DNA of 64,000 nucleotides from Minisyncoccia bacterium. Its GTDB lineage: Bacteria > Patescibacteriota > Minisyncoccia > Phycocordibacterales > GWA1-40-21. The position numbers and the translations under genes are program-made. The notes beneath the pieces are model-generated. The model did not search any database, was not told where the DNA came from, and saw nothing but the letters and a program-made list of their open reading frames with translations. This document shows, piece after piece, positions 12,136-61,384 of the stretch (position 1 is the stretch's first letter; each line of letters starts with the position of its first letter). The stretch lies in NCBI GenBank assembly GCA_049695975.1, contig JBAVTE010000009.1, forward strand, positions 4,459 to 68,458, given 5' to 3'.

Positions 12136-12162
12136 CCAATTATTAGACTAAATATTAAAAAA

Positions 12163-16037: not shown

Positions 16038-16044
16038 TAATAAG

Positions 16045-46237: not shown

Positions 46238-48442
46238 CTATTTGAAAGGATTTATTCCTTTATAAATAGAGTTTATCATCCCTTCTATTTTTTCCGTCAT
46301 ACTTGGATTTATTTTTTCTGCTCTTTTCAACAAATCAACTGTAGTAGAAATAATCCCTTTATCATAATACCCTTTTGCAACCGCCATATATGATGAAGAA
46401 ATTCTTGAGTCGCTTGTAGTTGCATTTCCCCAAAGTGCATCAAAAGTTTTTTGATCTTGAGCAAAGATAAGAGATACACCATAAATTATTTTTGTTTCAG
46501 GATAGTTTTGTTCTAGATCATATGACTCTTTTGCCTCTTTCAATACATTATCTATTTGACCCAAGTTAAGATATGCGTTTACAAGTTGAGTTCTAAAGGC
46601 CTGCTTATTTGGAGAAAGTTCTTTTGCTTTTAAGAGATATGTTAATGCTTGATTAAAATCTCCTAAATTAACTAGAAAAATTCCAAAAAATTCTTGATAT
46701 CTTGCATCGTTTGGATAAGTAATAACCTGTGTTTTTATTTGAGTATAAGCTAAGTCAACAAATTTAGTTTTTAAATCCTGACTTGCTACTGTACCTCGAT
46801 ATACAGAAGGAGCAATTTCGAGCAATCTTTCTCTAACTTCTGCTTTTCCTAAAAATCCATTGGAAACAGCTTCTTTGAAGAAATTCAAACTAAGATCAGG
46901 ATATTTACTCTGTGTTTGTACAGCTAAAATCAAATTATGATTTGTATGAATTGGTTTATAATTTACAAAATATAAACTAGCAAAAAGTGCAATAACGACG
47001 ACAGGCGCTATCATATAAGCTACAGCCTCATTATTCTTGCCTGTCTCATCCATCCACTCAGATATTTTTTGCATGTAAGTCCCTTGCTCTCCCTTCTCCC
47101 TTCTAGAATAAATATGAATGATTGCAAAAACTGTAAAGAACAAGAACAAACTTATATTATTATCGAACACAAATAAACTCTGGAAAAAATATCCCGCGAG
47201 TAGTCCTGTAATAACTGACTTCTCTATGATAGACAAAATGCTTGCCTTTCTCCATAGCTCATATAGACATGCGAGATAAAGTCCAAGATAAAATAATAAC
47301 CCCAGAAACCCTCCGGCAACAAGCATATCGAGAGGCATATTGTGCGCCCTATCAAACCATTGCTCTTGATAATACATTTTTGGATCATAAAATTTGTTGA
47401 AAGCATAATTAAAATTTTCTTGACCCCATCCTAAAATCGGTCTCTCCATTGCACCTTTTATAGCCATTGGCCAAACGAGCTGTCTCGCTTGACCGTTTAG
47501 ATCAGTCAAAGAAACAGACAATAATCTCTGCAAGGAACCGTGACTTTTTATATAACTAGAATCCAAAATATTTTGAGTAATTTTACCAAGTCCAGTCTGC
47601 TGATAAGGAGCTGTGTCTCTAAAAATAAATGCTGAATAAGTAAAACCGAAAATAAACATCACAGCAAATATAACAACAGAAGTTTTCCTCACAAAAACAT
47701 TTTTCTTCTCGAAAATTGTAATAAGGAGAGCAGAGATCAATAGGCCAACACCCAATCCCAAAATAACCCCTCTTGAAGTGTTATAAACAAGATATGTAAA
47801 CATACCCCCTAAACATAAGTAAATATAAAATAACCAATTCGAAAAAAGTTTCTTAAGGACGATTCCCTGTTCAGTCAAGCATTTTACCAAGACATCTCTG
47901 TACAAAAGAACCAAAATAAAGAAGAAGTTGAAAAGAAAATAAACGGAGAGATAAATAGGGTTACCAAGTGGGCCGGATACTCGATAAATACCATTCGTGA
48001 TATCTACGAATGACATAATACTCATAATGAAGCTCAAGAAAACCGAGGTTCTCAAAAACCAGGACAAAAAATCATTCTTGATGACAGAAGCAAAAACAAC
48101 AAAATACATTAAAAGATGTATAAGTGTCACCCATCCGTCCATTCGTTCAAAGTTACTCCACAGAGATTTTGCAGGAGCCACACCAAATATATCTGCAAGG
48201 AACATTACTGAAACAAAAAGAAACGCAATCAAAGCCACCCAGGAAAACTTTAGTCTGCTTTCCTTATCCTTGAAAATAAGGATAAGCCAGAGAGCAAAAA
48301 CAATTTCTATAATAATGCGAAGTGTAAATGCCTTACCGACTATGTATGGAAAATACATTCCGTTTGTCACGATAAATGGTACAAGAAGCAATGCAAAAAG
48401 ACCTGTAATAACCGTTACTTTCAATAATTGTTTGATAGTCAT
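46238..48442 (-). CDS. polytopic membrane protein with O-antigen-ligase/Wzy_C domain and C-terminal periplasmic TPR repeats (candidate glycan polymerase or O-oligosaccharyltransferase)
   Basis: >10 predicted TM helices; Wzy_C-type motif RAHNMPLDMLVAGGFLGLLFY after a large external loop; C-terminal ~250 aa TPR-like (LTYLLKAKELSPNKQAFRTQLVNAYLNLGQ). Confidence 0.6.
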   Translation of the reverse strand: MTIKQLLKVTVITGLFALLLVPFIVTNGMYFPYIVGKAFTLRIIIEIVFALWLILIFKDKESRLKFSWVALIAFLFVSVMFLADIFGVAPAKSLWSNFERMDGWVTLIHLLMYFVVFASVIKNDFLSWFLRTSVFLSFIMSIMSFVDITNGIYRVSGPLGNPIYLSVYFLFNFFFILVLLYRDVLVKCLTEQGIVLKKLFSNWLFYIYLCLGGMFTYLVYNTSRGVILGLGVGLLISALLITIFEKKNVFVRKTSVVIFAVMFIFGFTYSAFIFRDTAPYQQTGLGKITQNILDSSYIKSHGSLQRLLSVSLTDLNGQARQLVWPMAIKGAMERPILGWGQENFNYAFNKFYDPKMYYQEQWFDRAHNMPLDMLVAGGFLGLLFYLGLYLACLYELWRKASILSIIEKSVITGLLAGYFFQSLFVFDNNISLFLFFTVFAIIHIYSRREKGEQGTYMQKISEWMDETGKNNEAVAYMIAPVVVIALFASLYFVNYKPIHTNHNLILAVQTQSKYPDLSLNFFKEAVSNGFLGKAEVRERLLEIAPSVYRGTVASQDLKTKFVDLAYTQIKTQVITYPNDARYQEFFGIFLVNLGDFNQALTYLLKAKELSPNKQAFRTQLVNAYLNLGQIDNVLKEAKESYDLEQNYPETKIIYGVSLIFAQDQKTFDALWGNATTSDSRISSSYMAVAKGYYDKGIISTTVDLLKRAEKINPSMTEKIEGMINSIYKGINPFK

Positions 48443-48773
48443 ATTTTAAAAAACTTGTCCCGTAATAAGTTATATCTTACTACTGGTATTATTAGTAATA
48501 TCAATAATCTATAATAAAAAACTTTCAAAAGCTAGTGCAAGTGGCATTATAACACAGAAAATTAATGACAGAAAAGATTAATTTTAAAAACGTGGGTGTG
48601 AGTTCCATCTGCAATATGTCGAAAAGTCGCATAGACAAAGGATGGCGGAACAATGCAAGTATGGAGTGGTGGAAAACAAACAAGATCTCCATTATACATA
48701 GATGAATGTTTAGATCGAAAAACAAGTAAAAAAAGTGACGTTTCAATATAAAGGTGATAAAATATCCTAAATT

Positions 48774-50120
48774 ATGGAAATCGACAATAAAGAGCAGATC
48801 AATGCAACTGTCCTTGACTATTTTACCAACTGGCAAACTTTTTGGTTTTATATAAAAGAAAAGATACAACACCCCGGTGTGCAAAAACATGGAAAAAATA
48901 TGGGGTGGATGTTCACGACAAAGATTACAAGTATGGCGATTTCATTTATCGCAACAGCGTATATAGCAAGGCATCTTGGTCCGATGAATTATGGAGAACT
49001 CAGCTATGCTATGAGCTTTGTGGGACTTTTTGGTTTTATAGCAGTTCTCGGTATAGATCAAATACTATATAGAGATCTTATAAAATACCCTGAAAAAAGA
49101 AACGAATACATGGGGACAGCACTAACTGTGAGAATAATAGCTTCCATAATTGCAGTAATGGTTTGTACATTAGGTGCTTTTATTTTTTCACCAAGAGATG
49201 TTTCTTTATTCTTAATTTTTATTATTAGTTTAACTTTTATATTTAGCTCTTTTCAATTATTGAGTTATGAATTTCAAGCAGAAATAAAATCAAAATATCC
49301 TTCTATCATTTCTTTGGTAATTGTATTGATCTTAAATATATTAAAAATAATAGTAATTTTTAATAGTAAAGGTGTTATATATCTTGCTGGAATCGTCCTG
49401 CTTGAACCCATACTTTATTCTATCGGCTTCTTATATTTTAGAATAAAAAAGTTTGGAACAATTAAATATTGGAGATTTGATAAAAATATTGCGATTTCAA
49501 TTTTAAAAGATTCATCCCCTCTTATTTTTTCATCAGTCTTCCTTGCAATATATGCCCGAATAGATCAAGTTATGATAAAAAATATGATGGATGCGGGTTC
49601 CGTCGGACTCTACAGTTCTGCAGTTACAGTCTCAGAAGTTTGGTATTTTATTCCAAATATAATTGTCTCAGCTCTATTTCCTGCAATCATAAATGCAAAA
49701 TTAACTTCAGACGGACTCTATAAAAATAGATTGAAAAAATTAACCTCACTTTTGTTTGTGTTTTCTTTAATAGCTTCAATTTTTACATCAATTTTTGCCC
49801 CAATAATAATAAAGATACTTTATGGATCTGCTTTCATAGGCGGTATAACAGTCCTACAGATATATGTGTGGTCTCTCGCCGGAACTTCATTAAGTAACTT
49901 AATAATGAATTATTTAGTAGCCCAAAATTACAGAAGGATTTCACTTTTAATAAATATTTTGCCGATGATTATAAATGTTATTTTAAATATAATCTGGATA
50001 CCAAAATACGGTATAATTGGAGCTGCATTAGCGACACTCATTTCATATTCTATTGGTCCTTTTGTCTTATTACTTTTTAAAAAAACAAGAAGTGAAATAT
50101 TAGAAATAATCAAAGCATAA
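48774..50120 (+). CDS. Wzx-like polysaccharide flippase (MOP/PST superfamily)
   Basis: 448 aa, ~12-14 TM helices, PST-family layout; divergently transcribed from the Wzy_C gene. Confidence 0.6.
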   Translation: MEIDNKEQINATVLDYFTNWQTFWFYIKEKIQHPGVQKHGKNMGWMFTTKITSMAISFIATAYIARHLGPMNYGELSYAMSFVGLFGFIAVLGIDQILYRDLIKYPEKRNEYMGTALTVRIIASIIAVMVCTLGAFIFSPRDVSLFLIFIISLTFIFSSFQLLSYEFQAEIKSKYPSIISLVIVLILNILKIIVIFNSKGVIYLAGIVLLEPILYSIGFLYFRIKKFGTIKYWRFDKNIAISILKDSSPLIFSSVFLAIYARIDQVMIKNMMDAGSVGLYSSAVTVSEVWYFIPNIIVSALFPAIINAKLTSDGLYKNRLKKLTSLLFVFSLIASIFTSIFAPIIIKILYGSAFIGGITVLQIYVWSLAGTSLSNLIMNYLVAQNYRRISLLINILPMIINVILNIIWIPKYGIIGAALATLISYSIGPFVLLLFKKTRSEILEIIKA

Positions 50121-50121
50121 T

Positions 50122-51042
50122 ATGTTTAAAATAAAAGAAAGGACAGATAATTTACGTTTTAAAATATACTATAATTCCTTGTTCAAAATAAAAGTCTGGA
50201 CAACAAGAAAAGTGGTGAAATTGTTTAAATTAGGAAGACATACTAGTTATCCATTTATAACTGGGGATAGTTTCCGAGCTTTGGCCCAGCACATTTTTGA
50301 TGAATCATCTGATATTGATTGTCCGTCAGTTATGCATAGTGATATTGTATTTGTACGGACAGATTTTTTGCATACTTTTTTTAAAAAAATACATATAAAA
50401 ATTATTAATCCTTATATTTTAATATCCCATAATGCTGACAATAACATAGACTCTCAATATGAAAAATATATCGATGATAAAATTATCCACTGGTTTGCAC
50501 AGAATCTTTTAATAGACAATAAAAAAATAACTCCTATACCGATAGGGATAACCCTTAGATTTTATGACAAAAAAAATACAACCGCAGAATTAATTAAAAA
50601 ATATCGAAATAAAATAGGTCGTATTTTAAAAATATTTTTTGGATTTTATGGAAATACCAACAAAAAGAGGTTGGGAATCGTAAATGACCTTAGGAAATGT
50701 TCTGTGTGTGTTGAATGTAAGGATTTTTTGGAAAAAGATAAGTACTATGATCAAGTTTCAAATTATGTTTTCAACGCATCACCTATCGGAAATGGGATAG
50801 ACTGTATTCGCACATGGGAATCATTATATTTAGGAACTATTCCCGTGGTTGAAAGAAGTGTGTCAACTGGATATTGGAAAAATATCGGTATTCCCCTACT
50901 TCTCGTTGATTCTTGGAAAGATTTAGAGAATGTCAGAGAAGATTGGCTTAAAAAAGAATATGAAGATATAAAAAATAAAATTGGTTCGGAAGCAATTTAT
51001 ATGGATTATTGGATAAAAGAAGTCATAAAATATAAAAATTAA
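50122..51042 (+). CDS. hypothetical protein in the glycan cluster (possible glycosyltransferase of unassigned family)
   Basis: No canonical motif recognised; tight operonic packing (2-nt gap to the upstream gene, 1-nt gap to the downstream gene). Confidence 0.3.
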   Translation: MFKIKERTDNLRFKIYYNSLFKIKVWTTRKVVKLFKLGRHTSYPFITGDSFRALAQHIFDESSDIDCPSVMHSDIVFVRTDFLHTFFKKIHIKIINPYILISHNADNNIDSQYEKYIDDKIIHWFAQNLLIDNKKITPIPIGITLRFYDKKNTTAELIKKYRNKIGRILKIFFGFYGNTNKKRLGIVNDLRKCSVCVECKDFLEKDKYYDQVSNYVFNASPIGNGIDCIRTWESLYLGTIPVVERSVSTGYWKNIGIPLLLVDSWKDLENVREDWLKKEYEDIKNKIGSEAIYMDYWIKEVIKYKN

Positions 51043-51043
51043 A

Positions 51044-51928
51044 ATGAATTATTCAATAGGAGTCGTCACATATCACGCCAGATTTGAAAAATATTTCATT
51101 CCTCTCATCAAGAAATTGACTGCTATATTTCCTGATAAGGAAATCATATGCGTAATCAATGGACATCCAGATAGAACATTGCAAATCAATTATTTAAATA
51201 ATATTACTGCTTTTTTGTCGAAATTTTCGAATGTTCGTTATTTGACTTATGATACAAATCAATCTTTATCTAAATGCTGGAATCAAATAATAATACTTTC
51301 TCAAACAGAGAAAGTTATTATTATAAATGACGACACTCAAGTAACAGACCTCTTCCGCCAAGAATTTGAAACAAAAGTTTTAGACATACCATTTTCAATT
51401 ATGAATGCCAGCTGGAGTCATTTTCTTACTTCCAAAGAAATTGTTAAAAAAGTTGGATGGTTTGATGAACGTCTCTTGGGAGTTGGGTACGAGGACGCAG
51501 ATTATGGACTAAGAATGGCAATGCTAGGCATCCCTATGACAAATACTATTTGTTTGGGACTCAATAATTATGTAGCTGGCCAAGAAAATCCTGGATGGAA
51601 AAATATTTCCCAAAAAATTAATGCATCAAAATATACATTAGTAAATTTTGAATTTTTTAAAACAAAATGGGTTACTATGGATATAAACCCAGAAATCAAA
51701 CCAGAAAATTTCAAACATAAATTACAATGGAATGATACTCTGTGTTTATTCTCTCCAAAGACAAATGAACCTACCCCTATATTTTACGATTTCAGTTGTC
51801 TTGATTATAAAATAAAAACAAGCTTTAGTTCTCTGCCTTATATTGAAAATAATTTCAAAATTACAATGCAAAAAGTATTCTTTGCATTCAAACAATTACT
51901 TAAGAAAATATATAGAAAAATGTTATAG
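51044..51928 (+). CDS. GT2/GT7-like glycosyltransferase with galactosyltransferase-type GxGxEDxDxxxR motif
   Basis: VIIINDDTQV (DxD-like) and LGVGYEDADYGLRM, which resembles the beta-1,4-galactosyltransferase C-terminal motif (WGWGGEDDD). Confidence 0.45.
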   Translation: MNYSIGVVTYHARFEKYFIPLIKKLTAIFPDKEIICVINGHPDRTLQINYLNNITAFLSKFSNVRYLTYDTNQSLSKCWNQIIILSQTEKVIIINDDTQVTDLFRQEFETKVLDIPFSIMNASWSHFLTSKEIVKKVGWFDERLLGVGYEDADYGLRMAMLGIPMTNTICLGLNNYVAGQENPGWKNISQKINASKYTLVNFEFFKTKWVTMDINPEIKPENFKHKLQWNDTLCLFSPKTNEPTPIFYDFSCLDYKIKTSFSSLPYIENNFKITMQKVFFAFKQLLKKIYRKML

Positions 51929-51934
51929 CACCAG

Positions 51935-52942
51935 CTATTTTTGAATCCAAAAACTTGGTAATTTTTTTGTAATTTCAATATTTTCAAATTCTTTACTGGA
52001 TTGAACACCCACCTTCCTGGCCCAATCAAACATTTTCTTGAGACCTTCGGATAAAAGAATCCTCTTCGGCCTGTTTGATAAAAGTCTATTTAATTTGTCG
52101 TGAGTACTATATGCATGCTTGACTTCATTTCTAGTTTCAAGATGTTTTCTTTGGATTGGTTTACCATTAGCCTTTTCAAGTTCATCTGTCATTTGATTAA
52201 TTGTGCAAGGAACATCTCCTCCAACATTTATAATTTGACTATAAAACGATTTATTCTCGACAGAGTGAGCAATGATTGGGGCAACATCATCAATATATGA
52301 AAATGCTCTGGATTGTTCCCCGTCCCCATAGATAGTTACTGGCTCATCTTTCATTATTTTGTTCATAAAAATACCGATAACATTTCTATATTTATCACCA
52401 ATATTTTGTCTTGGTCCGTAAACATTATGAGGTCTAAATATGACATAATCCATTCCAAACATCTCATTGGCCGCTTTTAAATCAAGTTCAATTGCATACT
52501 TGGCCACACCATACGGATCACAAGGCGAAGGAATCATATCTTCTGAAAATGGAGGTTTGCCATGACCATATACGGCCATTGAAGAAGTAAACACAAAACA
52601 TTTTACTCCATATTTAATAGATGCATTAATCAGATTGACACTGCCCATAAGATTATTTTCATAATTAAACTTACGAATAAAATGACTCAAACCTTCTGCG
52701 GCATAAGCAGCTAAATGATATACATATGAAAATTTGTGTTCAGCAAAAAGTTTTTCTACAAGAGTGGCGTCAGTAATTGACCCATTAATAAATAAAATAC
52801 CTGGCGAGATATTGCTTTCAAAACCTCCCGATAAATCGTCTAAGACAACGACAGAATGACCCATTTTCAAAAGTTCATCCGCAACATGAGAACCAATAAA
52901 ACCTGCACCACCAGTCACTAATATTTTTTCTGATTTATTCAT
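51935..52942 (-). CDS. NAD-dependent nucleotide-sugar epimerase/dehydratase (extended SDR; GalE/UXS-like)
   Basis: ILVTGGAGFIGSHVADELL Rossmann motif, catalytic YxxxK (YGVAKY), YGDGEQSRAF motif; start taken at the ATG at 52942. Confidence 0.8.
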   Translation of the reverse strand: MNKSEKILVTGGAGFIGSHVADELLKMGHSVVVLDDLSGGFESNISPGILFINGSITDATLVEKLFAEHKFSYVYHLAAYAAEGLSHFIRKFNYENNLMGSVNLINASIKYGVKCFVFTSSMAVYGHGKPPFSEDMIPSPCDPYGVAKYAIELDLKAANEMFGMDYVIFRPHNVYGPRQNIGDKYRNVIGIFMNKIMKDEPVTIYGDGEQSRAFSYIDDVAPIIAHSVENKSFYSQIINVGGDVPCTINQMTDELEKANGKPIQRKHLETRNEVKHAYSTHDKLNRLLSNRPKRILLSEGLKKMFDWARKVGVQSSKEFENIEITKKLPSFWIQK

Positions 52943-53048
52943 AACATTAAATATTATACACATTCATAATTATTTTGCACCATATTTATATTATGTTGAA
53001 AAATATACAAAAATTGATATAATATCAAGTAATTAATATAATAAAATT

Positions 53049-53921
53049 ATGAAATACTTAGTATTGGGATCGGCTGGTCAGATAGGTTCGACACTTGTCA
53101 AAAAAATTAAAGAAAATAAAAAAGATGAGGTTTTTGAATTCGATATAGAAAATAATCCGTCTCAGGACCTTAGAATTTATAATAACAAGCTACTAGATAA
53201 AATAATAAAAAAATCGGATTTTATCTTCTTTTTGGCTTTTGATGTTGGAGGATCAAGATATTTAAAAACATACCAAGATACTTATGATTTTGTATCAAAC
53301 AACATTAAAATTGTAGACAGGACTTTTGATGCATTGAAAAAACACAATAAACCATTTATCTTTGCCTCAAGTCAAATGGCAAATATGTCTTATTCAAGTT
53401 ACGGTCTCCTCAAATCAGTCGGAGAAAAAAATACTGAGATTTTAGGTGGACTTGTGGTTAAATTTTGGAATGTTTATGGCTTAGAGCATGATAAAAATAA
53501 ATTTCATGTTATTACTGACCTTATTATCAGAGCATCAACAACTGGTAAAATAAATCTTTTAACTGACGGTACTGAGGAAAGACAACTCCTTTTTACTGAT
53601 GATTGTGCCGAGTGTTTAATAGAATTATCAAAAAAATACAAGAATATACCAAGAAATAAACAACTGCATATCACAAATTTCAAATGGCACACCATTCTCG
53701 ATGTAGCAAACATTATTTCAAAACATTTTCCTGGTTCTAAAATAAAACCAAGTAAACAAATAGATACAGTTCAAAAAAACAAAAAAAATGAACCGGACTC
53801 ATATATTCTTAGCTATTGGAAACCAAAAACTAAACTTGAGGATGGTATTGCTTATATAATAAAAGAGATGAAAGCACATCCTGAAAAATATCCGGGTATG
53901 TCCTCAAAAAAAATCCTATAA
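53049..53921 (+). CDS. NAD(P)-binding epimerase/reductase-like protein (divergent extended SDR)
   Basis: MKYLVLGSAGQIGSTLVKKI Rossmann-type N-terminus; SSQMANMSYSSYGLLK region suggestive of a catalytic S...YxxxK triad; low similarity beyond the fold. Confidence 0.5.
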   Translation: MKYLVLGSAGQIGSTLVKKIKENKKDEVFEFDIENNPSQDLRIYNNKLLDKIIKKSDFIFFLAFDVGGSRYLKTYQDTYDFVSNNIKIVDRTFDALKKHNKPFIFASSQMANMSYSSYGLLKSVGEKNTEILGGLVVKFWNVYGLEHDKNKFHVITDLIIRASTTGKINLLTDGTEERQLLFTDDCAECLIELSKKYKNIPRNKQLHITNFKWHTILDVANIISKHFPGSKIKPSKQIDTVQKNKKNEPDSYILSYWKPKTKLEDGIAYIIKEMKAHPEKYPGMSSKKIL

Positions 53922-53945
53922 TACAGTGTTATTTTTATAATTAAT

Positions 53946-54896
53946 ATGAAAACAATCGTACTCATACCCATTAAAAATGAGGAATGGATTTTGGAGCAGA
54001 CTCTAAATAATATTTCACCGTATGTGGATGAAGTTATAATTGCAGATCAAAAATCAACAGACAAAAGTTTAGAAATCTGTAAGAAATTTTCTAATGTAAA
54101 AGTGATTGATAACCCTTATGAAGGACACAGCAATAAAGTCCGATGGTTACTTCTCGAGGAAGCCAGGAAAATCGGCAAAAATAATTTGATTGTCTGTATT
54201 GATGCCGATGAGATGATTTCACCAATGGGTTTAGAAGAAATTAAAAAACTTATCTCAGAAGGTAAGGCCACTAAGGGAGATGTATTTAAATTAAAATGGA
54301 TACAATTATGGAAAAATACTAAGGAGTATAGAGATGATGGGGTTTGGAAGGATAATTATAAAGATGTTGCTTTTATTGATAACGAAGAAATCAATGAATA
54401 CAAAAGAGATTTTGTTGTAAACGACCACACTTCTAGAGTCCCAGATACAAACATAAATAAAGAAATATCAATTTCCTATCCCCTACTTCATTTTCACTTT
54501 GTGGCTTGGAAAAGAACTGAAATGAAACAGGCTTGGTATAGGTGTTCTGAACTTATTGCTGGTTTAAGAAATGCAAAAAGAATTAATAACACTTATAGAG
54601 TAACCCTCGAACCTAAAAATATTAAACTTCTTTCTATACAAAAAGAATGGGTAGATGGATTGACTCTGACACAAAACATGGAAAAAGCTTCGAGTGATTG
54701 GCATCTGAAAGAAATTTTAGGGTTTTTCGATAAATATGGAATTAAATTTTTTGAGCAATTACAGATTTGGAATATTGACGAATTGCATAATGAATTTGTA
54801 AAAAAAGTTGGACGAGAACCAATAAGTAGAGTTTATCCCAGTTGGTTAGTTGCCTTGAACGAAATTAAAAACAAGATTAGAAATTTTCGCCCATAA
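53946..54896 (+). CDS. glycosyltransferase, GT2-like (GT-A fold)
   Basis: IVLIPIKNEEWILEQTLNNI ... EVIIADQKSTDKS ... VCIDADE (DxD) layout. Confidence 0.55.
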   Translation: MKTIVLIPIKNEEWILEQTLNNISPYVDEVIIADQKSTDKSLEICKKFSNVKVIDNPYEGHSNKVRWLLLEEARKIGKNNLIVCIDADEMISPMGLEEIKKLISEGKATKGDVFKLKWIQLWKNTKEYRDDGVWKDNYKDVAFIDNEEINEYKRDFVVNDHTSRVPDTNINKEISISYPLLHFHFVAWKRTEMKQAWYRCSELIAGLRNAKRINNTYRVTLEPKNIKLLSIQKEWVDGLTLTQNMEKASSDWHLKEILGFFDKYGIKFFEQLQIWNIDELHNEFVKKVGREPISRVYPSWLVALNEIKNKIRNFRP

Positions 54897-54898
54897 AT

Positions 54899-55834
54899 AT
54901 GGAAAAAACATTTAAACAAATTGTGATAGACAAATTAAGAAACATTATTCCATTGTCATTTAGAAAAAAAATTGGGCCTTTTTTTGCTTACATAACCTAC
55001 ATATTTAATATCTATATATTAAAAAACAAAAAACAACCAAAAGTATTGTCGATCATAGAAACTATTGATTTAATAAATAAAATGAATCTTTCTGTCATAC
55101 GATTTGGCGATGGGGAAATGTCTCTAATGGATGGTGTTGATTTAGCTTTTCAAAAATACGATTCGGGACTTGCCCAAAGACTCGTTACTATTTTGCAGAC
55201 AAAATCAGACAAATTATTGATTTGCATTCCTGGAATTTGGAAAAATATAAACAGTTTCAACAAAAGAGATTTTTGGTTTTTTATGCATCATCTTTTTAGA
55301 TATAGACACACTTGGCTAAATTTATTATCTAGTGATCAGATTTATGGTAATACTTTTGTGACTCGTCCCTATTTAACATTCAAAGACAAATCTAAAAGCG
55401 GATATACTTTTGATAAAATATTATCTATTTGGAAAGAAAAAGATATAGTATTAATCGAGGGTGAAAAAAGTCGACTAGGTGTAGGCAATGATCTGTTTAA
55501 TAATGTAAAATCATTCAAAAGAATACTGTGTCCGTCTGAAAACGCTTTCTCAAAATATAATGAAATAAAAGCAGAAGCGGTAAAAATTGATAAAAATAAA
55601 TTAATTTTAATTTCTCTCGGTCCGACTGCCAAAGTGTTGGCTTTTGACTTATTTTTATTAGGATATAGAGTAGTTGATATTGGCCACATAGATATGGAGT
55701 ATGAAATGTTTTTGAAAAAGGAAACAAAAATTATAAAGGTCAGATACAAATATTTCAATGAAATAAGTGAAAGAAATCCTGAAGAATATAATGACAAAAA
55801 ATATCTCGATCAAATAATTACTAAAATAATATGA
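54899..55834 (+). CDS. GT-D-type glycosyltransferase (DUF1792-like)
   Basis: VIRFGDGEMSLMDGVDLAFQ resembles the RFGDGE (DxE metal site) signature recalled for the DUF1792/GT-D family. Confidence 0.45.
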   Translation: MEKTFKQIVIDKLRNIIPLSFRKKIGPFFAYITYIFNIYILKNKKQPKVLSIIETIDLINKMNLSVIRFGDGEMSLMDGVDLAFQKYDSGLAQRLVTILQTKSDKLLICIPGIWKNINSFNKRDFWFFMHHLFRYRHTWLNLLSSDQIYGNTFVTRPYLTFKDKSKSGYTFDKILSIWKEKDIVLIEGEKSRLGVGNDLFNNVKSFKRILCPSENAFSKYNEIKAEAVKIDKNKLILISLGPTAKVLAFDLFLLGYRVVDIGHIDMEYEMFLKKETKIIKVRYKYFNEISERNPEEYNDKKYLDQIITKII

Positions 55835-56895
55835 AAAAAATCAAAGTAAAATATTGTAAATACGACAAATTTGATGAAAATACTCCCCTGACCTATAATT
55901 ATTTCATACATAATATACTCAAAAAATATTATGATGTAGAAGTGTCAGACAACCCAGACTATGTATTTTATCATGAATCAACGTATGATTATTTGAAATA
56001 TAATTGTATTAGAATATTCTATACAGCTGAAAATGTCAGCCCAAATTTTAATCTTTGCGATTATGCTATTAGTAATGACTATATAAATTTTGAAGATAGA
56101 CATTATCGACTAGCATCTTACCTTGTCGCGACTTTTTATCAAAAAAAGGAGTTGGAATTAGCCAAAGATATTGATATAACAAAACCAAAAATTTTTACAA
56201 AAGAAGACCTTGCTAAAAAAACTGATTTTTGTAGTTTTGTTTATTCGAACTATCTCGCCGATGAAAGGAGAAAAATTCTTTTTGATAAAATTTACGCGTA
56301 CAAAAAAGTAGATGCCGGTGGTAAATATCTCAATAATATTGGAGGTCCTACCGACAATAAATTAGGATTTGAAATGAAACACAAATTTTCAATGGCTATC
56401 GAAAATTCCTCTCGTAATGGATATACAACAGATAGAATTGTTTGTTCTTTTATGGCAAATACTATACCAATATATTGGGGTAATCCAGAAATCGGGCGTG
56501 AATTTAATACTAAACGCTTCATAAACTGTCATGACTATAAAACATTCGATGAAGCAGTGGAAAGGGTAAAAGAAATAGATAATAATGATGAGCTTTACTT
56601 AAAAATAATAAATGAACCATTATTTGCAGAAGATTATAGTTTTGAAAAAGCTACGAATGGCCTTGAAAAATTTTTAAGAAATATCTTTGATCAACCAATT
56701 GAAAATGCATCCCGTCGAACCATAAATATGGCGCGATCTGTAAAAATGGAAAAAAATGAAAAAATTATCGAAAGATATACAAAAAAACAGGCAAAAATAA
56801 AAAAACTTTTGGCCAAATTATATCAACCATTCAAGAAAATCAAATCGTTAGAAAATTTTAAAGAAAATTATTTTAGAAAAAAAATATTAAAATGA
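55831..56895 (+). CDS. alpha-(1,3/4)-fucosyltransferase, family GT10 (Helicobacter FutA-like)
   Basis: HKFSMAIENSSRNGYTTDRIVCSFMANTIPIYWGNPEIGREFNTKRFINCHDYKTFDEA matches the FucT motifs YKFNLCFENS..GYVTEKI...TIPIYWG...FVNVHDF. Confidence 0.8.
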   Translation: MKKIKVKYCKYDKFDENTPLTYNYFIHNILKKYYDVEVSDNPDYVFYHESTYDYLKYNCIRIFYTAENVSPNFNLCDYAISNDYINFEDRHYRLASYLVATFYQKKELELAKDIDITKPKIFTKEDLAKKTDFCSFVYSNYLADERRKILFDKIYAYKKVDAGGKYLNNIGGPTDNKLGFEMKHKFSMAIENSSRNGYTTDRIVCSFMANTIPIYWGNPEIGREFNTKRFINCHDYKTFDEAVERVKEIDNNDELYLKIINEPLFAEDYSFEKATNGLEKFLRNIFDQPIENASRRTINMARSVKMEKNEKIIERYTKKQAKIKKLLAKLYQPFKKIKSLENFKENYFRKKILK

Positions 56896-58100
56896 TAGAG
56901 ATACATACGCCCAAAGTTGAAAAGCAAAGATATCCATATTTAGATGCCATGCGAGGAATTGCTATTTTGCTCGTGATTATGTATCACACAACTATTTTTA
57001 TGATTCACAGTACCCCGAATATTCTCTACAGAATATCTGGAGAAGGGGCACGCGGGGTTCAAATCTTTTATATTGTGAGTGCACTTACTTTATGCATGAG
57101 TCTTTCTGCCAGTTTTTTCACTGGAAAAAGACTGGAACAAATCAAGTTTTGGATCAGAAGATTTTTTAGAATTGCACCTGCCTTCTATTTTGTAATAATA
57201 ATTTCCACCGTAATAGGAGTACTGTTCCCTCTTTGGAAAAGCATGCTTTATTTGGATATCAACTCAATTAGTGTTATTTCTGCAATTACTTTCACAAATA
57301 ATTTTTTACCTGAATATATTAACAGTGTCATCCCTGGCCAATGGTCAGTCGCTATTGAAATGTTTTTCTATCTTACAGTACCACTATTTTTCTTAAGAAT
57401 AAAAAGTCTTTCCTCAGCAAAAAAATACTTCTTTTTATTTTTTGGTTTTGCATGTTTAATTGAATTACTTCTTCCTATGTTTCTCCCAGCAATTGCTAGT
57501 GAAAATACCAAAATTTTCCTTTTCTATACTATCCCTATCCAACTTCCAACTTTTTTACTTGGTTTTATTGCTTTTTTTATGCTACGGGAAAATGAACATA
57601 AACCATTTTGGATGCTAAAAGAATTTACTTCACTCTTATTAATAGTATCTGCCAGCGAAATAATTTTTCTTGCTCTTAGATATTTTATTTTTCATAACAT
57701 TGATATATCATTAATTACTCCAAGAGTATATATTGAATCAGTATTGTTTCTAGGGCTAGTATTACTTCTTGCAAAAGGATATGTTTCTTTTTTGCAAAAT
57801 AAAGTATTTCAATACATTGGAAAAATCAGTTACAGTATTTATTTAGTTCAGTTTATAGCCTTTTTTATTATCACAAAAAATAGCATATATCCAATAGTTG
57901 CTTCCTACTTTCATAATGGTGTGGAAGAATATATTTTTCTTTCTGTTGCAACCATACTTCTTTGTGTTGGGATATCTTCTCTTACATTCAAATACATTGA
58001 AACCCCTGGTCAAAAATTAGGAAATTATATTTACAAAAAAGTAGCAGAAAGATACAATCGCCCATCCTCACAAAGCGATAATATTACCAAAACACCATAA
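56892..58100 (+). CDS. membrane acyltransferase family 3 (O-acetyltransferase, OatA/WecH-like)
   Basis: LDAMRGIAILLVIMYHT N-terminal motif; 10-11 TM helices. Confidence 0.75.
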   Translation: MIEIHTPKVEKQRYPYLDAMRGIAILLVIMYHTTIFMIHSTPNILYRISGEGARGVQIFYIVSALTLCMSLSASFFTGKRLEQIKFWIRRFFRIAPAFYFVIIISTVIGVLFPLWKSMLYLDINSISVISAITFTNNFLPEYINSVIPGQWSVAIEMFFYLTVPLFFLRIKSLSSAKKYFFLFFGFACLIELLLPMFLPAIASENTKIFLFYTIPIQLPTFLLGFIAFFMLRENEHKPFWMLKEFTSLLLIVSASEIIFLALRYFIFHNIDISLITPRVYIESVLFLGLVLLLAKGYVSFLQNKVFQYIGKISYSIYLVQFIAFFIITKNSIYPIVASYFHNGVEEYIFLSVATILLCVGISSLTFKYIETPGQKLGNYIYKKVAERYNRPSSQSDNITKTP

Positions 58101-59048
58101 ATGATTACAATATTTACAGAAAATTCAATAGAGGAACCTGTGATTTCTTTTATTAAAAGATATTTAAGAGCATTAAAAAAAATTGCACTTGGAAAAAGTT
58201 TCTCATTAAAATATGGTGGACATTATGCTGTTACCCGAAGTTTACTTGTAGGTTTAGATAAATTACAAGTAAACTATAATTACAACCCCACAAAAATAGA
58301 CGACCTTAATAAAATAGTCCTAGTTCTCAGCAATATCCGAGCTTTAAAGACAGCAATCAAGCTAAAACAAAATGGCAAAATAAAGAAACTTTTTGCAGGA
58401 CCAAATATCATAAACGATCCAGCTGATGAAAAAGAATTATTAAGTTCAAAAGAGATAGATAAGTTCATTGTGAATAGTGACTGGACAAAGGAACTCTACG
58501 GGATTGCTGTTCCAGAATTAATAAACAAATTATCAATCTGGCCAGCTGGAGTAGATGAAGAATACTGGTCACCTAAACCAGAGCAAAAGAACAAGAAAGC
58601 ACTTGTCTATTGGAAAAATGGAACGAGAGATTTCTATCAGTCAGTCGTGAATATTTTGACAGAAAATGGCTGGAAAATATCAACAATAAAGTATGGCAAA
58701 TATAAAGAAAAAGAATTTAATAAAAAATTATCAGATGTATCAATATCTATTTTTCTAAGTAATTGGGAAAGCCAAGGGCTGGCGTTAGCCGAATCGTGGG
58801 CTATGGATATACCTACCCTCGTCTTCAATCCAAAAACTATTTATGAAAAATATCAAGTCGAAACTTCATCAAGTCCATACCTCTCAAAGGATACTGGGTA
58901 TGATTGGAAAGATATAAATGAGTTGAATTATTTATTGAAAAATGAGAATCTTATGGATATACATCCTAGAAAATGGCTTCTAGAAAATATGACAGACAAA
59001 ATATGTGCGCAGAAATTACTTAACATAATATATGAAAAAACTAATTAA
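58101..59048 (+). CDS. GT-B glycosyltransferase (GT4-like)
   Basis: C-terminal EX7E-type motif region NWESQGLALAESWAMDIPTLVF. Confidence 0.5.
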   Translation: MITIFTENSIEEPVISFIKRYLRALKKIALGKSFSLKYGGHYAVTRSLLVGLDKLQVNYNYNPTKIDDLNKIVLVLSNIRALKTAIKLKQNGKIKKLFAGPNIINDPADEKELLSSKEIDKFIVNSDWTKELYGIAVPELINKLSIWPAGVDEEYWSPKPEQKNKKALVYWKNGTRDFYQSVVNILTENGWKISTIKYGKYKEKEFNKKLSDVSISIFLSNWESQGLALAESWAMDIPTLVFNPKTIYEKYQVETSSSPYLSKDTGYDWKDINELNYLLKNENLMDIHPRKWLLENMTDKICAQKLLNIIYEKTN

Positions 59049-59748
59049 AAAAATGATAGGGGTTATTCTGTCCCCTTTTGTGTTAAAAGATTTCCTTCAT
59101 TACAAAAAATTGGATAAAGAAAAGAGATTCAGAAACAATCTTTTTGATTTTTTCCCATGCGTCTTTGACAAAACTATTAAAACAAATTTTGATGCACACT
59201 ACATATATCATACATCTTGGGCCGCAAGAAAAGTAAAAGAAATCAATCCGAAAAAACACACTGATATATCTTCTAGTTTGTATTTTTCTGGAATTTTATC
59301 TGCATTTATACCAGTAGATTTTTATGATTATAGGCCAGCAGAACTTAACCTCTCCCAACTTAAAAGTGGTCATGTAGATCTCGTAAAGTTACCTTTTACA
59401 GACAATAGTATCTATTCTTTGTCATGTATGCACACCATAGAACATATTGGCCTCGGTAGGTATGGAGATCCCATAGATCCTGAAGGTGATCTAAAAGCTA
59501 TAAATGAAATAAAAAGAGTGTTAGCAAAAGAAGGTTCCCTTCTCTTCGTAGTACCAATTGGTAATCCTAAAATTGAATATAATGCACATAGAATATATTC
59601 GTATGATCAAGTATTGTCATATTTTCAAAAATTAAAATTAAAAGAATTTAGTTTGATTACTGATAGTGGAAAATTTATGTATAATAGTACAAAAGAAGAG
59701 GCTGATAAACAATCATATGGCTGTGGATGTTTTTGGTTTATTAAATAA
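59032..59748 (+). CDS. putative SAM-dependent methyltransferase (DUF268-like)
   Basis: VDLVKLPFTDNSIYSLSCMHTIEHIGLGRYGDPIDPEGD ... RVLAKEGSLLFVVPIG resembles the methyltransferase post-I/II region and the GLGRYGDP motif recalled for DUF268. Confidence 0.45.
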   Translation: MKKLIKKMIGVILSPFVLKDFLHYKKLDKEKRFRNNLFDFFPCVFDKTIKTNFDAHYIYHTSWAARKVKEINPKKHTDISSSLYFSGILSAFIPVDFYDYRPAELNLSQLKSGHVDLVKLPFTDNSIYSLSCMHTIEHIGLGRYGDPIDPEGDLKAINEIKRVLAKEGSLLFVVPIGNPKIEYNAHRIYSYDQVLSYFQKLKLKEFSLITDSGKFMYNSTKEEADKQSYGCGCFWFIK

Positions 59749-59759
59749 TAATTGATAAA

Positions 59760-60626
59760 ATGTTGATTGTAAAAATAAAAGCAGGACTAGGAAACCAGAT
59801 GTTTCAATATGCATTTGGTAGAGCGTTGTCTCTCGAACGTAAAGAACCTTTGTTCTTAGATACTTTCTACTACAAAAATCAGCCCGAGCGAGACGCGAAA
59901 AGAGAATATATCCTTGATAAATTTAATATAGAAGCCAATTATGCATCGGAAGAGATGTATAAAAAATATAATTCAAAATTAGAAGTTTTTTTCAGAAAAT
60001 TATACCGAAGAATAAAGAAAGTGGAAGAATATACTTATTATCCTTCTTTCATGAAATCAAAAGCCTCTTATTTTGAAGGATATTGGGCAAATCAAAAATA
60101 TTTTTTAAAGTATGAAAATATTATTCGTAAAGAATTATCCTTAAAAAATCCTTTCGGTGATTCCGCTAAAAAAATAGATATACAAATGTCTGATTGTCTA
60201 TCAAAGGGCGAGATCCCTGTATCAATCCATATCCGTAGAGGTGATTTTGTATCTAACCCACATTCCGCTGCGTATAATGGGTTACTCGGAATTCCCCACT
60301 ATGAAAAAGCTGTGGAACTTTTGATGTCTAAATATTTCAAAAACATATCTGTGTTTATTTTTTCCGACGATATCGCTTGGGTAAAAGAAAATTTAAAATT
60401 ACCTTGCCCAATGTATTTTGTATCAAATAGTGACATTAAAGATTATGAAGAAATAATTTTGATGAGTGAATGTAAACATCACGTCCTCGCAAATTCAACT
60501 TTTTCTTGGTGGGGTGCGTGGCTCAATCCCAATCATGATAAAATTGTTATAGTTCCCAAACAATGGATTGCCAAAAAAACCACAGAGGAAATTGATTTAA
60601 TACCAAAAGAATGGATAACAATATAA
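59760..60626 (+). CDS. alpha-(1,2)-fucosyltransferase, family GT11 (FutC-like)
   Basis: N-terminal KAGLGNQMFQYAFGRAL (GT11 motif I), VSIHIRRGDFV (motif II), HVLANSTFSWWGAWLN (motif IV). Confidence 0.85.
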   Translation: MLIVKIKAGLGNQMFQYAFGRALSLERKEPLFLDTFYYKNQPERDAKREYILDKFNIEANYASEEMYKKYNSKLEVFFRKLYRRIKKVEEYTYYPSFMKSKASYFEGYWANQKYFLKYENIIRKELSLKNPFGDSAKKIDIQMSDCLSKGEIPVSIHIRRGDFVSNPHSAAYNGLLGIPHYEKAVELLMSKYFKNISVFIFSDDIAWVKENLKLPCPMYFVSNSDIKDYEEIILMSECKHHVLANSTFSWWGAWLNPNHDKIVIVPKQWIAKKTTEEIDLIPKEWITI

Positions 60627-61384
60627 AAACAAAAGTAAGCATAGTTATAATAACAAGAAATAGAGCAATTTTTATTATTAAAGCTATTCAAAGTGTTTTA
60701 GATCAGACTTTATATAATTGGGAACTTTTGATTGGTGATGATGATTCTAAAGATGATACAGAAAAAATCGTCAGAGAATTTTCAAACAAAGACAACAGAA
60801 TAAAATATTTTAAAAACTCCCCTGCCTTGGGTATATCAAAAAACAGAAACAAAGCACTCTCTCTTGTTACTGGAAAATATATCTCAATTCTTGACAGTGA
60901 TGACTCATGGATAGACAAAGAAAAAATACAAACGCAGTTTAGTTTTCTAGAAAATAATCCTGATTATGTTTTAATTGGTTCTAATATAAAAGTTATAGAT
61001 GAAAAAAATAACTTTATAAGAAATACTGATTTTTCAACTGAAGATGCAGATATAAGAAAAAAAATACTTATTACAAATCAAATCCCCCATTCAAGTGTAA
61101 TGTATAGAAAAGATATTGCAGAAAAGGTAGGTAGATATAATGAAAATCTTTCTTGTGATGAAGACTTAGATTTATTTTTAAGATTAGGTCTCCTTGGTAA
61201 GATGAAAAATCTAACCGAAATTACTACTTCTTACACCAAACATTCGAAAGGATTTTCTCAACAGCAAAAGATATCTATGGCATGGAATCATTTCATTATA
61301 ATATTGCGAAATTTTGGAAAATACCCAAACTGGTTTATAGCTATTGTTTGGGCAAAATTTAGAATTTTAAAAAACTTATTTTAA
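60611..61384 (+). CDS. glycosyltransferase family 2
   Basis: VSIVIITRNRAIFIIKAIQSVLDQTLYNWELLIGDDDSKDDTEKIV and ILDSDDSW (DxD). Confidence 0.75.
   Translation: MDNNIKTKVSIVIITRNRAIFIIKAIQSVLDQTLYNWELLIGDDDSKDDTEKIVREFSNKDNRIKYFKNSPALGISKNRNKALSLVTGKYISILDSDDSWIDKEKIQTQFSFLENNPDYVLIGSNIKVIDEKNNFIRNTDFSTEDADIRKKILITNQIPHSSVMYRKDIAEKVGRYNENLSCDEDLDLFLRLGLLGKMKNLTEITTSYTKHSKGFSQQQKISMAWNHFIIILRNFGKYPNWFIAIVWAKFRILKNLF

Follow-up and report, generated by a model that had tools for sequence, protein, structure and literature searches.

A probable cassette variant of a conserved-site surface-glycan locus in Patescibacteria carries GT10 and GT11 fucosyltransferase homologs

Helicobacter pylori displays Lewis X/Y on its LPS by means of the fucosyltransferases FutA/FutB (GT10) and FutC (GT11), GT-B fold enzymes whose genes are scattered and lie outside any Wzx cluster. 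Enterobacterial O-antigen rfb (galF-gnd) and pneumococcal cps (dexB-aliA) loci keep interchangeable glycosyltransferase/sugar-nucleotide cassettes at a fixed site with conserved borders. In the O-glycosylation cluster of Tannerella forsythia (Bacteroidota), Wzx, multiple glycosyltransferases and methyltransferases give a complex oligosaccharide (PMC6120980), and S-layer glycosylation in Paenibacillus alvei (WsfB) and Geobacillus (WsaB) relies on Wzy_C-domain O-oligosaccharyltransferases (PMC2943079). Two single enzymes are also relevant: the GT-D fold DUF1792 protein dGT1 of Streptococcus parasanguinis (PDB 4PHR/4PFX), which acts in serine-rich-repeat adhesin glycosylation, and A075L (GT114) of the chlorovirus PBCV-1, a beta-xylosyltransferase that modifies O-4 of L-fucose within the core of the capsid N-glycan (PMC11571054).

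The locus analysed here, part of a 64,000-nt stretch of DNA (the window) from a Minisyncoccia (Patescibacteria/CPR) metagenome-assembled genome (MAG) of tiny size, shares features with each of these. A densely packed region of ~15 kb (46238-61384) encodes Wzy_C+TPR, Wzx, GT-D, GT10, GT11, three GT2, AT3 acyltransferase and DUF268 methyltransferase proteins and two SDRs. Profile searches, motifs and folds bear out the original prediction of a surface-glycan locus and confirm a genuine biosynthesis locus carrying two fucosyltransferase homologs. As also predicted, neither an initiating (phosphoglycosyl)transferase nor gmd or fcl is present within the window; the same is true of LCP genes, and MurD and UppP (23633-24505) are encoded near the locus. 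We consider it probable that the locus assembles a surface glycan on undecaprenyl phosphate in a Wzx-dependent manner, has a Patescibacteria-specific core and represents one of the cassette variants of a hypervariable glycan locus that occupies a conserved chromosomal site, from Wzy_C-TPR/Wzx to a TraG-like ATPase, in Patescibacteria.

This site is marked by a membrane protein of the Wzy_C (O-antigen-ligase) family that carries a 242-aa TPR domain at its C-terminus (Wzy_C-TPR; 46238..48442, minus strand) and a divergently encoded Wzx-type (MOP family) flippase (48774..50120, plus strand; Pfam Polysacc_synt, 104 bits), and other Patescibacteria carry unrelated glycosyltransferase cassettes there. 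Across 42 loci with a patescibacterial GT10, which formed our comparison set, GT-D immediately precedes GT10 in 35, and GT11 (30 loci), Wzx (24), GT4-like (23), GT2c (21, 3′ of GT11) and DUF268 (17) recur in order; GT-D, GT10, the GT4-like enzyme, the DUF268 methyltransferase, GT11 and GT2 make up the recurrent Patescibacteria-specific module. The downstream boundary is a VirD4/TraG-like ATPase (62797..63993, minus strand), cut by the window end and only weakly matching TraG-D_C, whose full-length family matches T4SS-DNA_transf/TrwB; it forms the opposite-strand flank in 22 of the 42 loci and also in L087, and is outside the glycan pathway. In rfb and cps loci Wzx and Wzy are cassette-specific, whereas here Wzx (44-65% identity in the 24 loci and in L086-L088) and Wzy_C-TPR (36-47%, whatever the cassette) are conserved across cassettes. 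A further difference is the organism, a probable monoderm whose genome is reduced. Two overlapping sigma-70-like promoter matches (52996..53042, plus strand; 11/12) fall in an 85-bp gap 5′ of a nine-gene plus-strand run, and a terminator-like hairpin (46124..46155, minus strand; 14-bp stem, 7 GC pairs, T-run) lies directly past the Wzy_C-TPR stop codon; both are consensus matches, and the total site number of the hairpin scan did not exceed that of shuffles.

As in rfb and cps, the cluster combines signs of lateral cassette exchange with lower total GC (0.27-0.32 for most of its genes; core genes, 0.32-0.39). The latter might suggest recent horizontal acquisition of the cluster as an island from a source outside Patescibacteria, but GC3 is indistinguishable (0.19-0.28 in the cluster, 0.20-0.32 in the core), so the drop in total GC reflects amino-acid composition. 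Moreover, every conserved cluster gene has its closest homologs in Patescibacteria and the chromosomal site is conserved, making such an origin highly improbable and the proposed label of island misleading. Gene-tree incongruence suggests cassette exchange within Patescibacteria instead: GT10 identity tends to run against flank identity (rho=-0.43, p=0.051), and L005/L006 carry the closest cassette yet the most distant flank.

The two fucosyltransferase homologs are bona fide family members, as Pfam, PDB 2NZW and motifs agree, and have the GT-B fold in common with the H. pylori enzymes. The GT10 protein (55831..56895, plus strand; Pfam FucT_N and Glyco_transf_10), a predicted GDP-Fuc alpha-1,3/4-fucosyltransferase, matches H. 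pylori HpFucT (PDB 2NZW) at E=1.5e-36 and keeps equivalents of its catalytic Glu95, Arg195 and Asn240, the catalytic-base Glu being invariant in 81/81 sequences. The GT11 protein (59760..60626, plus strand), a predicted GDP-Fuc alpha-1,2-fucosyltransferase, matches Pfam Glyco_transf_11 with 114 bits over profile positions 35-297 of 298, and its GLGNQxFQYA, HxRRGD, FSDD and NSTFSWW motifs are conserved across 30 loci. This solid family membership, with a GalE-like epimerase that could provide UDP-Gal, is the strength of the original proposal that GT10, GT11 and a galactosyltransferase build Lewis X/Y-like epitopes mimicking a host or partner, as FutA/FutC do in H. pylori. We nevertheless give that proposal very little chance, since no beta-1,4-galactosyltransferase for LacNAc formation can be identified in the locus, whether of GT7/GT25 type or another, and the galactosyltransferase-type motif claimed for GT2a finds no HMM or PDB support. 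All 42 patescibacterial GT10 sequences form a Patescibacteria-only clade (42/42 monophyletic) from environmental MAGs (groundwater, lake, pond and glacier stream), and their GT10 is invariably coupled to a GT-D enzyme, unlike that of H. pylori. In the window both fucosyltransferase homologs share an operon with GT-D, GT4-like, GT114-like, methyl- and acetyltransferases. The HpFucT alignment stops near residue 314, short of the C-terminal CNDAHYSALH sequence, which determines acceptor type in FucTa of H. pylori (PMC4202792); no H. pylori-type heptad repeats are aligned, and patescibacterial GT10 proteins share a conserved basic tail peculiar to them. The additional GT114-like, GT4-like, methyl- and acetyltransferase steps imply a different structure, and acceptor specificity cannot be inferred from GT family membership.

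The donor calls for separate consideration. In HpFucT, Glu249 of the E249-K250 site is believed to stabilise an oxocarbenium intermediate (PMC4202792); the window GT10 has D-R there, and TDR replaces TEK in 7 of the 42 patescibacterial members, within a high-identity subclade that includes the window protein. A highly divergent extended SDR of 290 aa (SDR290; 53049..53921, plus strand; Pfam Epimerase, 68.6 bits), possibly a sugar-nucleotide reductase or epimerase, resembles Fcl weakly and at its C-terminus only (NF047922, 34.6 bits; PDB 8EWU, 3e-7), and its orthologs (72-79%) occur only in L005-L007, all of that same subclade. Together with the absence of gmd and fcl from the window, these features would fit transfer of a different GDP-activated sugar, a 6-deoxyhexose or pentose, whose synthesis may involve SDR290. 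We consider this unlikely: the E-to-D and K-to-R changes are conservative, making a GDP-6-deoxy sugar would require a 4,6-dehydratase in addition to SDR290, and true gmd-fcl genes adjoin GT10 in seven relatives, physically linked to the same module, which supports GDP-L-fucose as the probable donor of both enzymes. Among the characterised members of CAZy families GT10 and GT11, none is known to use a donor other than GDP-L-fucose.

The remaining enzymes broadly match the predicted inventory, with some reassignment. GT-D (54899..55834, plus strand; Pfam GT-D, 293 bits; TIGR03728, 323 bits against a cut-off of 291) is confirmed as a DUF1792 (SP_1767 family) enzyme by alignment to dGT1 (PDB 4PHR, E=2e-67), including the DGE (DxE) motif; unlike dGT1 it is a stand-alone enzyme in a Wzx cluster, translationally coupled to GT10 (4-nt stop/start overlap), and neither accessory-Sec genes nor a serine-rich adhesin gene lie close by. 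Three of four predicted GT2/GT-A enzymes stand: the divergent GT2a (51044..51928, plus strand; Pfam Glycos_transf_2, 29.9 bits), with no PDB relative by sequence and orthologs in 5 of the 42 loci; GT2b (53946..54896, plus strand; 48.8 bits), whose family holds this position in 13/42 loci and is replaced by another GT2 family in 27; and GT2c (60611..61384, plus strand; 111 bits), the last cluster gene, whose best NCBIfam similarities (TuaG/EpsE/PglI) are all under cut-off. The fourth (50122..51042, plus strand) was rejected as a GT2 and is a GT114/exostosin-like inverting GT-B enzyme, possibly a beta-xylosyl-type transferase, matching A075L (PDB 8ASA/8AVQ/8Q8I) at E=1e-15 over residues 96-305 and, weakly, Pfam RXYLT1_C. 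Its D106 aligns with the catalytic Asp73, and Asn153, both phosphate-binding Arg (Arg158, Arg208), Asn202/Gly203 and Glu211 are kept (PMC11571054), but Asn148, which contacts uracil, is not, leaving the donor uncertain; like A075L it belongs to a fucose-related pathway, here in a bacterial lipid-linked context rather than cytosolic viral protein glycosylation. The predicted GT4-like enzyme is, by structure, a compact retaining GT-B transferase of 315 aa (58101..59048, plus strand; EX7E motif, E223...E231). Of two predicted epimerase/dehydratases, both are SDRs, but the one at 51935..52963 (minus strand; active-site stretch TSSMAVYG...YxxxK) is UDP-hexose/UDP-HexNAc 4-epimerase-like and not a 4,6-dehydratase, being closest to UDP-glucose 4-epimerase (PDB 4ZRM, E=3.6e-57, then 6WJB and 6DNT; TIGR01179 GalE, 165 bits, under cut-off; gmd, just 28 bits). 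The expected decorating enzymes were likewise recovered as an AT3-only membrane acyltransferase (56892..58100, plus strand; Acyl_transf_3, 91.9 bits), a predicted glycan O-acetyltransferase with orthologs (59-66%) in L005 and L006 only, and a DUF268/class-I SAM methyltransferase (59032..59748, plus strand; DUF268, 63.9 bits; Methyltransf_11, 20.6 bits), a predicted sugar O-methyltransferase with orthologs (51-75%) directly 5′ of GT11 in 17/42 loci.

How the glycan is used depends on Wzy_C-TPR. A Wzx and a Wzy_C-family membrane protein form the classic Wzx/Wzy pair, TPR domains are polysaccharide export scaffolds in other systems according to a reference within PMC2943079, MurD and UppP lie nearby, and GT2c has its sub-threshold resemblance to teichuronic-acid TuaG; these would accord with a Wzy-polymerised capsule or secondary cell-wall polysaccharide, with Wzy_C-TPR as polymerase, its TPR as chain-length/export scaffold, and an LCP-type enzyme encoded elsewhere attaching the polymer to peptidoglycan or lipid. 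We find this doubtful, as eight transferases plus an initiator are many for one repeat unit and the window holds no LCP gene. Repeat-unit polymerases are generally known to co-vary with the repeat, and the conservation of Wzy_C-TPR across unrelated cassettes argues against one. That conservation and its closest solved fold, the WaaL ligase (PDB 7TPG/7TPJ; 12% sequence identity), favour a candidate ligase/oligosaccharyltransferase. WaaL lacks the external TPR domain, and to our knowledge its lipid A-core acceptor is not expected in Patescibacteria. Because Wzy_C with a C-terminal TPR is common to the O-oligosaccharyltransferases WsfB and PglL (PMC2943079), a likeness of domain architecture, the suggested protein O-glycosylation stands as a reasonable candidate by analogy, although no acceptor protein or sequon is known in Patescibacteria and a profile search did not detect PglL_A.

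From gene families, motifs, folds, synteny, clade structure and gmd-fcl linkage in relatives, we infer a pathway whose sugars, order of action, acceptor and ligase step are all proposals. A phosphoglycosyltransferase encoded elsewhere would prime the undecaprenyl-phosphate carrier, on which eight cytoplasmic transferases (GT114-like, three GT2s, GT-D, GT10, GT4-like and GT11) would assemble a complex hetero-oligosaccharide; GT10 and GT11 would attach two L-fucose residues, drawing on GDP-fucose whose synthesis is encoded elsewhere in the genome, the GalE-like SDR would provide a 4-epimerised UDP-hexose or UDP-HexNAc, and the DUF268 and AT3 enzymes would decorate the glycan. Wzx would then flip the finished glycan, and Wzy_C-TPR, acting extracytoplasmically and most likely as a ligase/O-oligosaccharyltransferase, would move it onto its final acceptor. 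The locus would be one cassette of a variable glycan site that the group has in common, rather than an isolated imitation of human Lewis blood-group antigens.

The ORFs of the original prediction were present at the coordinates given, and profile searches (Pfam, NCBIfam) upheld nearly all of its family calls. The locus comprises a Wzy_C plus TPR membrane protein (Wzy_C-TPR, 46238-48442, minus strand), a MOP-family flippase matching Wzx/Polysacc_synt (48774-50120, plus, 104 bits), GT2 proteins at 51044-51928 (GT2a), 53946-54896 (GT2b) and 60611-61384 (GT2c), all on the plus strand, and two epimerase-family SDRs (SDR342, 51935-52963, minus; SDR290, 53049-53921, plus). These are accompanied on the plus strand by a GT-D enzyme (54899-55834; Pfam 292.8 bits), a GT10 enzyme (55831-56895), an Acyl_transf_3 protein (AT3, 56892-58100), a DUF268/Methyltransf_11 methyltransferase (59032-59748) and a GT11 enzyme (59760-60626). 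GT-D also exceeded, with 323 bits, the 290.75-bit cut-off of TIGR03728 (SP_1767 family), and no other cluster protein was named above an NCBIfam cut-off. The plus-strand run 48774-51928 is tightly packed, and genes of the run 53049-61384 are separated by gaps of 0-24 nt or overlap by 4-17 nt. Promoter and terminator scans of the window gave total sites no more frequent than in shuffles; two intergenic promoter/terminator sites are consistent with the locus and were not counted as evidence.

The remaining genes of the window are housekeeping (rpoB/C, dnaG, rpoD, dnaE, thrS, hisS, uppP, murD). Among other features, a phosphoketolase (XFP, 818 aa) adjoins acetate kinase (14853-18501, minus), a compact phosphoketolase-to-acetate ATP-yielding pair in a reduced genome. 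A 303-aa ORF (4920-5831, minus) is a fusion of a NusB domain with a NUDIX hydrolase domain at its C-terminus, and a second NUDIX ORF lies at 6249-6743; a TspO/MBR family membrane protein (28769-29167, minus, 108 bits) adjoins an AddA-like helicase-nuclease gene; and a 246-aa ORF between dnaG and rpoC (32323-33063, minus) and a 118-aa ORF (3852-4208) had no Pfam match.

The GT10 and GT11 assignments central to the original prediction held under closer inspection. Both GT10 domains exceed their Pfam gathering scores (FucT_N 82.1 against 27.2 bits; Glyco_transf_10 58.9 against 23.9 bits), and the protein matches the Helicobacter pylori fucosyltransferase HpFucT (PDB 2NZW, E=1.5e-36), retaining the equivalents of its catalytic base Glu95, Arg195 and Asn240 (YTAEN, ..ERRK.. 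and IEN aligned). The catalytic-base Glu is invariant in all 81 GT10 sequences compared. HpFucT E249-K250 of the (Y)VTEK motif is replaced by D-R (TDR) in the window, a form found in 7 of 42 patescibacterial GT10s beside TER in 2 and TEK in 33; mutants of HpFucT Glu249 are almost without activity (PMC4202792). The D-R form is, judged by sequence, conservative and fixed in one subclade. The GT11 match spans positions 35-297 of the 298-position profile (114.3 bits against a gathering score of 23.9), and it carries the motifs GLGNQxFQYA, HIRRGDF, FIFSDD and ANSTFSWWGAWL, which are conserved in 30 patescibacterial orthologs, the last three (tested as HxRRGD[YF], FSDD and NSTFSWW) to 70-90% or higher; no solved structure was matched by the GT11 sequence. 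We regard family membership of both proteins as solid because of the profile matches and the conserved residues and motifs, and we infer the GDP-L-fucose donor, linkage and acceptor of these fucosyltransferases, predicted to be alpha-1,3/4-specific (GT10) and alpha-1,2-specific towards galactose (GT11).

Setting aside a 100%-identical sequence, the best 120 homolog clusters share 54-78% identity with the window GT10, and every specifically named organism among them belongs to Patescibacteria (Magasanik-, Taylor-, Paceibacterota). Scanning GTDB species representatives yielded 41 patescibacterial loci at 50-78% identity, with Firmicutes and Bacteroidales coming next (38-54%), and in a neighbour-joining tree all 42 patescibacterial GT10s were monophyletic, with no outsiders.

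To compare gene order, all ORFs of the 41 loci and the window were clustered into families annotated by Pfam, with GT10 (42/42 loci) as the reference gene. GT-D lies immediately upstream of GT10 on the same strand in 35 of the 42 loci, the GT4-like gene directly after GT10 in 23 and the DUF268 methyltransferase directly before GT11 in 17; GT11 itself is present in 30, Wzx in 24 and GT2c in 21. Two GT2 families that the window lacks occur in 27 loci each (Fam3 at about -3.5 kb, Fam4 at about -1.8 kb), the window carrying instead the GT2b variant (Fam12, about -1.9 kb, 13/42), and a DegT aminotransferase belongs to an upstream sugar-nucleotide block in 24. The recurrent order is thus (Wzx ...) GT-D, GT10, GT4-like, DUF268 methyltransferase, GT11, GT2. 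Neither GT-D, the methyltransferase nor the GT4-like gene was found beside GT10 in any of 39 non-patescibacterial loci. From this recurrent synteny, and the absence of the partners from non-patescibacterial loci, we conclude that the window carries a variant of a Patescibacteria-specific module, with GT114-like, GT2a, SDR342, SDR290 and AT3 as its own accessory genes.

The opposite-strand flank in 22 of the 42 loci is a VirD4/TraG-like ATPase (Fam8; window 62797-63993, minus). Across many Patescibacteria this T4SS-type coupling-protein ATPase marks a conserved opposite-strand boundary of the glycan locus, and RsmI and a DUF4015 glycosyl-hydrolase-like gene frequently come after it. Between GT2c and this flank the window carries murD (61381-62796, minus; TIGR01087 299 bits, above cut-off), which overlaps GT2c convergently by 4 nt, an insertion absent from related loci. 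In the Magasanikbacteria-type loci L001 and L013, a 904-aa protein without a Pfam match (7270-9984, plus) lies directly upstream of GT10 in the usual place of GT-D; its orthologs (33-45% identity) occur in L015, L035 and L041, and GT-D was undetected in all three. AT3 was called in the Magasanikbacteria contig L001 as a 715-aa fusion with an SDR epimerase domain (12008-14155, plus), and the near-identical contig L002 has AT3 and SDR as separate genes, so that L001 shows either a real fusion or an assembly/frameshift difference.

GT-D aligns with PDB 4PHR (E=2e-67) through RFGDGE, its DxE motif, and its gene overlaps that of GT10 by 4 nt, through which the two are probably translationally coupled. 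The ORF at 50122-51042, originally called GT2, instead matches the chlorovirus PBCV-1 enzyme A075L (PDB 8ASA/8AVQ/8Q8I, E=1e-15), the founding GT114 member and an inverting GT-B beta-xylosyltransferase acting on O-4 of L-fucose (PMC11571054). This GT114-like ORF conserves A075L catalytic Asp73, Asn153, Arg158, Asn202/Gly203, Arg208 and Glu211; its donor is uncertain because the uracil-contacting Asn148 is not conserved, and no UDP-xylose synthase was identifiable within the window. The protein at 58101-59048 shows the two-Rossmann GT-B fold and EX7E motif of GT4-type retaining enzymes. A galactosyltransferase-type motif had been read in GT2a, which gave a generic weak GT2 match and nothing more specific, with neither a Glyco_transf_7C match in Pfam nor a PDB relative.

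The two SDR genes had been described as epimerase/dehydratases, of which the epimerase-family assignment stands for both and the dehydratase part falls away for SDR342. This protein is closest to UDP-hexose/UDP-HexNAc 4-epimerases (PDB 4ZRM, E=3.6e-57) rather than Gmd, and motif reading shows no dehydratase-type acid/base pair. SDR290 is a very divergent SDR whose similarity to Fcl is weak and confined to the C-terminus. A divergent gmd/fcl pair formed by the two was rejected on these grounds, SDR342 scoring 28 bits with the gmd model. Consistent with the predicted absence of an initiating transferase and gmd/fcl, searches of the 64-kb window for phosphoglycosyltransferase, gmd, fcl, manC and LCP genes were negative. 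Searches within 10 kb of GT10 in the related loci, with seeds taken from E. coli K-12 (its annotated colanic-acid region), recovered true gmd and fcl (54-62% identical) in seven (L020, L022, L024, L027, L030, L034, L044), directly downstream of GT10 in the order GT10, gmd, fcl in L020; manC was found in L007, L020 and L030, and among the homologous clusters L001/L013, L016 and L023 carry Bac_transf initiating transferases. Because these genes accompany GT10 in relatives, there is good, if indirect, guilt-by-association that the module would use GDP-L-fucose and a polyprenyl-phosphate carrier, and the GDP-fucose and initiation genes of the window's genome must, we infer, lie outside the window.

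A search with Wzy_C-TPR (E<=1e-10) returned 1,836 homologs. The best 120 are mostly full length (38-75% identity), the named ones nearly all from Patescibacteria. Of the distant homologs, three located on long contigs (L086, L087 and L088; 43-44% identical) were examined, and in all three Wzy_C-TPR is divergently paired with a Wzx heading a cluster wholly unlike that of the window: GT8, SDR, FdtA, DegT and methyltransferases in L086; five GT2, one GT4 and methyltransferases in L087, ending at a TraG-like gene (1-247); and GT114-like, GT11, methyltransferase, DegT and SDR genes in L088. Housekeeping genes (murB, secA) occupy the other side of these sites. Identity of Wzy_C-TPR to that of the window is similar in GT10-type (36-47%) and other loci (43-44%), with Wzx dropping only from 57-65% to 44-60%. 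Scoring of Wzy_C-TPR adjacency was limited to the window, L006, L011 and L018, since in most GT10-selected loci the cluster runs upstream of Wzx beyond the 10-kb flank.

Wzy_C-TPR could be a repeat-unit polymerase, for which it is the sole candidate in the window, or a ligase. It joins a Wzy_C domain to C-terminal TPRs (Pfam) predicted by hydropathy to lie on the external face, helices 515-727 forming a TPR-like array in a structure model; its fold is WaaL-like, it does not co-vary with the cassette, and no PglL_A match appeared in Pfam output. The Wzy_C plus TPR architecture has precedent among protein O-oligosaccharyltransferases of the PglL/WsfB type (PMC2943079). We favour a ligase/oligosaccharyltransferase of relaxed glycan specificity, acting on a protein, peptidoglycan or lipid acceptor, over a polymerase because the protein is conserved whatever the cassette, a second candidate membrane polymerase is absent from the window, and the presence of eight transferases points to a single complex oligosaccharide and not a short repeat. 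Adjoining Wzy_C-TPR is a Ser/Thr-rich, membrane-anchored PKD-repeat protein (44215-45678, minus), speculatively a candidate surface glycoprotein acceptor. Its start is probably internal (MKKNYT...), and it has a signal/TM-like N-terminus, three PKD-like repeats rich in Ser/Thr/Gly, and a TM anchor and cytoplasmic tail at the C-terminal end; a second PKD protein (FG-GAP+PKD) lies at 10808-11857 (minus).

Loci L005 and L006 have the GT10, GT11, SDR290 and methyltransferase closest to those of the window (67-79%) and the most distant TraG-like flank (48-49%), and GT10 identity correlated negatively with TraG-like flank identity (rho=-0.43, p=0.051). Together these observations suggest that cassettes have been exchanged within the Patescibacteria group. 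Horizontal acquisition had also been proposed for testing by composition; despite a lower total GC, GC3 of the cluster did not differ from core genes, and composition was therefore rejected as evidence of recent foreign origin.

The Lewis-antigen mimicry originally suggested by analogy with H. pylori found no support in the comparison: nothing tested fits beyond the shared GT10 and GT11, and the cluster contains no GT7- or GT25-type match that might form LacNAc (Gal-beta-1,4-GlcNAc). Nor is the association with a Lewis-antigen-bearing animal host expected of an H. pylori-type system seen: going by record titles, the MAGs that hold the orthologous loci are environmental (groundwater, lake, pond, glacier stream and the like). 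The locus is thus not such a mimicry system in any tested respect past GT10/GT11, and an attractive but unsupported claim is removed. It would work like known Wzx-dependent glycan/glycoprotein pathways, its enzymes all coming from known families, and resembles rfb and cps as a variable locus at a conserved site.

As proposed, an initiating transferase encoded elsewhere would prime the lipid carrier, with UppP recycling Und-P, and the chain would be extended by GT2, GT114-like, GT-D, GT10, GT4-like and GT11 enzymes, whose families are established. GT10 and GT11 would add two fucoses from GDP-Fuc, the DUF268 enzyme would O-methylate and AT3 O-acetylate the glycan, Wzx would flip it, and Wzy_C-TPR would pass it to an acceptor on the outer face. 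DUF268 is named for Caenorhabditis proteins and the literature searched assigns it no function; the C. elegans proteins also occur in glycosylation-gene clusters (PMC7614267), making a glycan-methylating role common to both groups plausible.

A large part of bacterial diversity falls within Patescibacteria/CPR, and attachment to host cells is believed to be common among them. The literature searched held no account of patescibacterial fucosyltransferases or of the GT10 module, and nothing on the cell-surface glycobiology of the group. The loci add new sequence space for GT10 and GT11 enzymes, including a natural E-to-D/K-to-R active-site variant, and also supply bacterial GT114-like enzymes and a GT-D coupled to a GT10. 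A Patescibacteria-specific fucosyltransferase module with gmd-fcl in relatives predicts fucosylated, methylated surface glycans on a definable part of the lineages. Lectins (AAL, UEA-I) might then serve to label or enrich the cells, and the locus could be used as a serotype-like marker in strain typing and in work on host or phage specificity. The picture of conserved Wzx and Wzy_C-TPR machinery with swappable cassettes is concrete and testable. Tentatively, and as a rather unlikely extension, it may represent a general patescibacterial system of surface (protein) O-glycosylation that varies by cassette and depends on Wzy_C-TPR. The conserved Wzx and external Wzy_C-TPR would then serve interchangeable cassettes at one site, Wzy_C-TPR would be an oligosaccharyltransferase with relaxed glycan specificity in a strain-variable system, the widespread GT10 cassette family would decorate surface proteins of the S-layer, pilin or PKD type with methylated, difucosylated oligosaccharides, and host-cell recognition or phage pressure would drive cassette exchange. 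In that case, a defined subset of the uncultured episymbionts could be labelled and enriched by means of fucose lectins.
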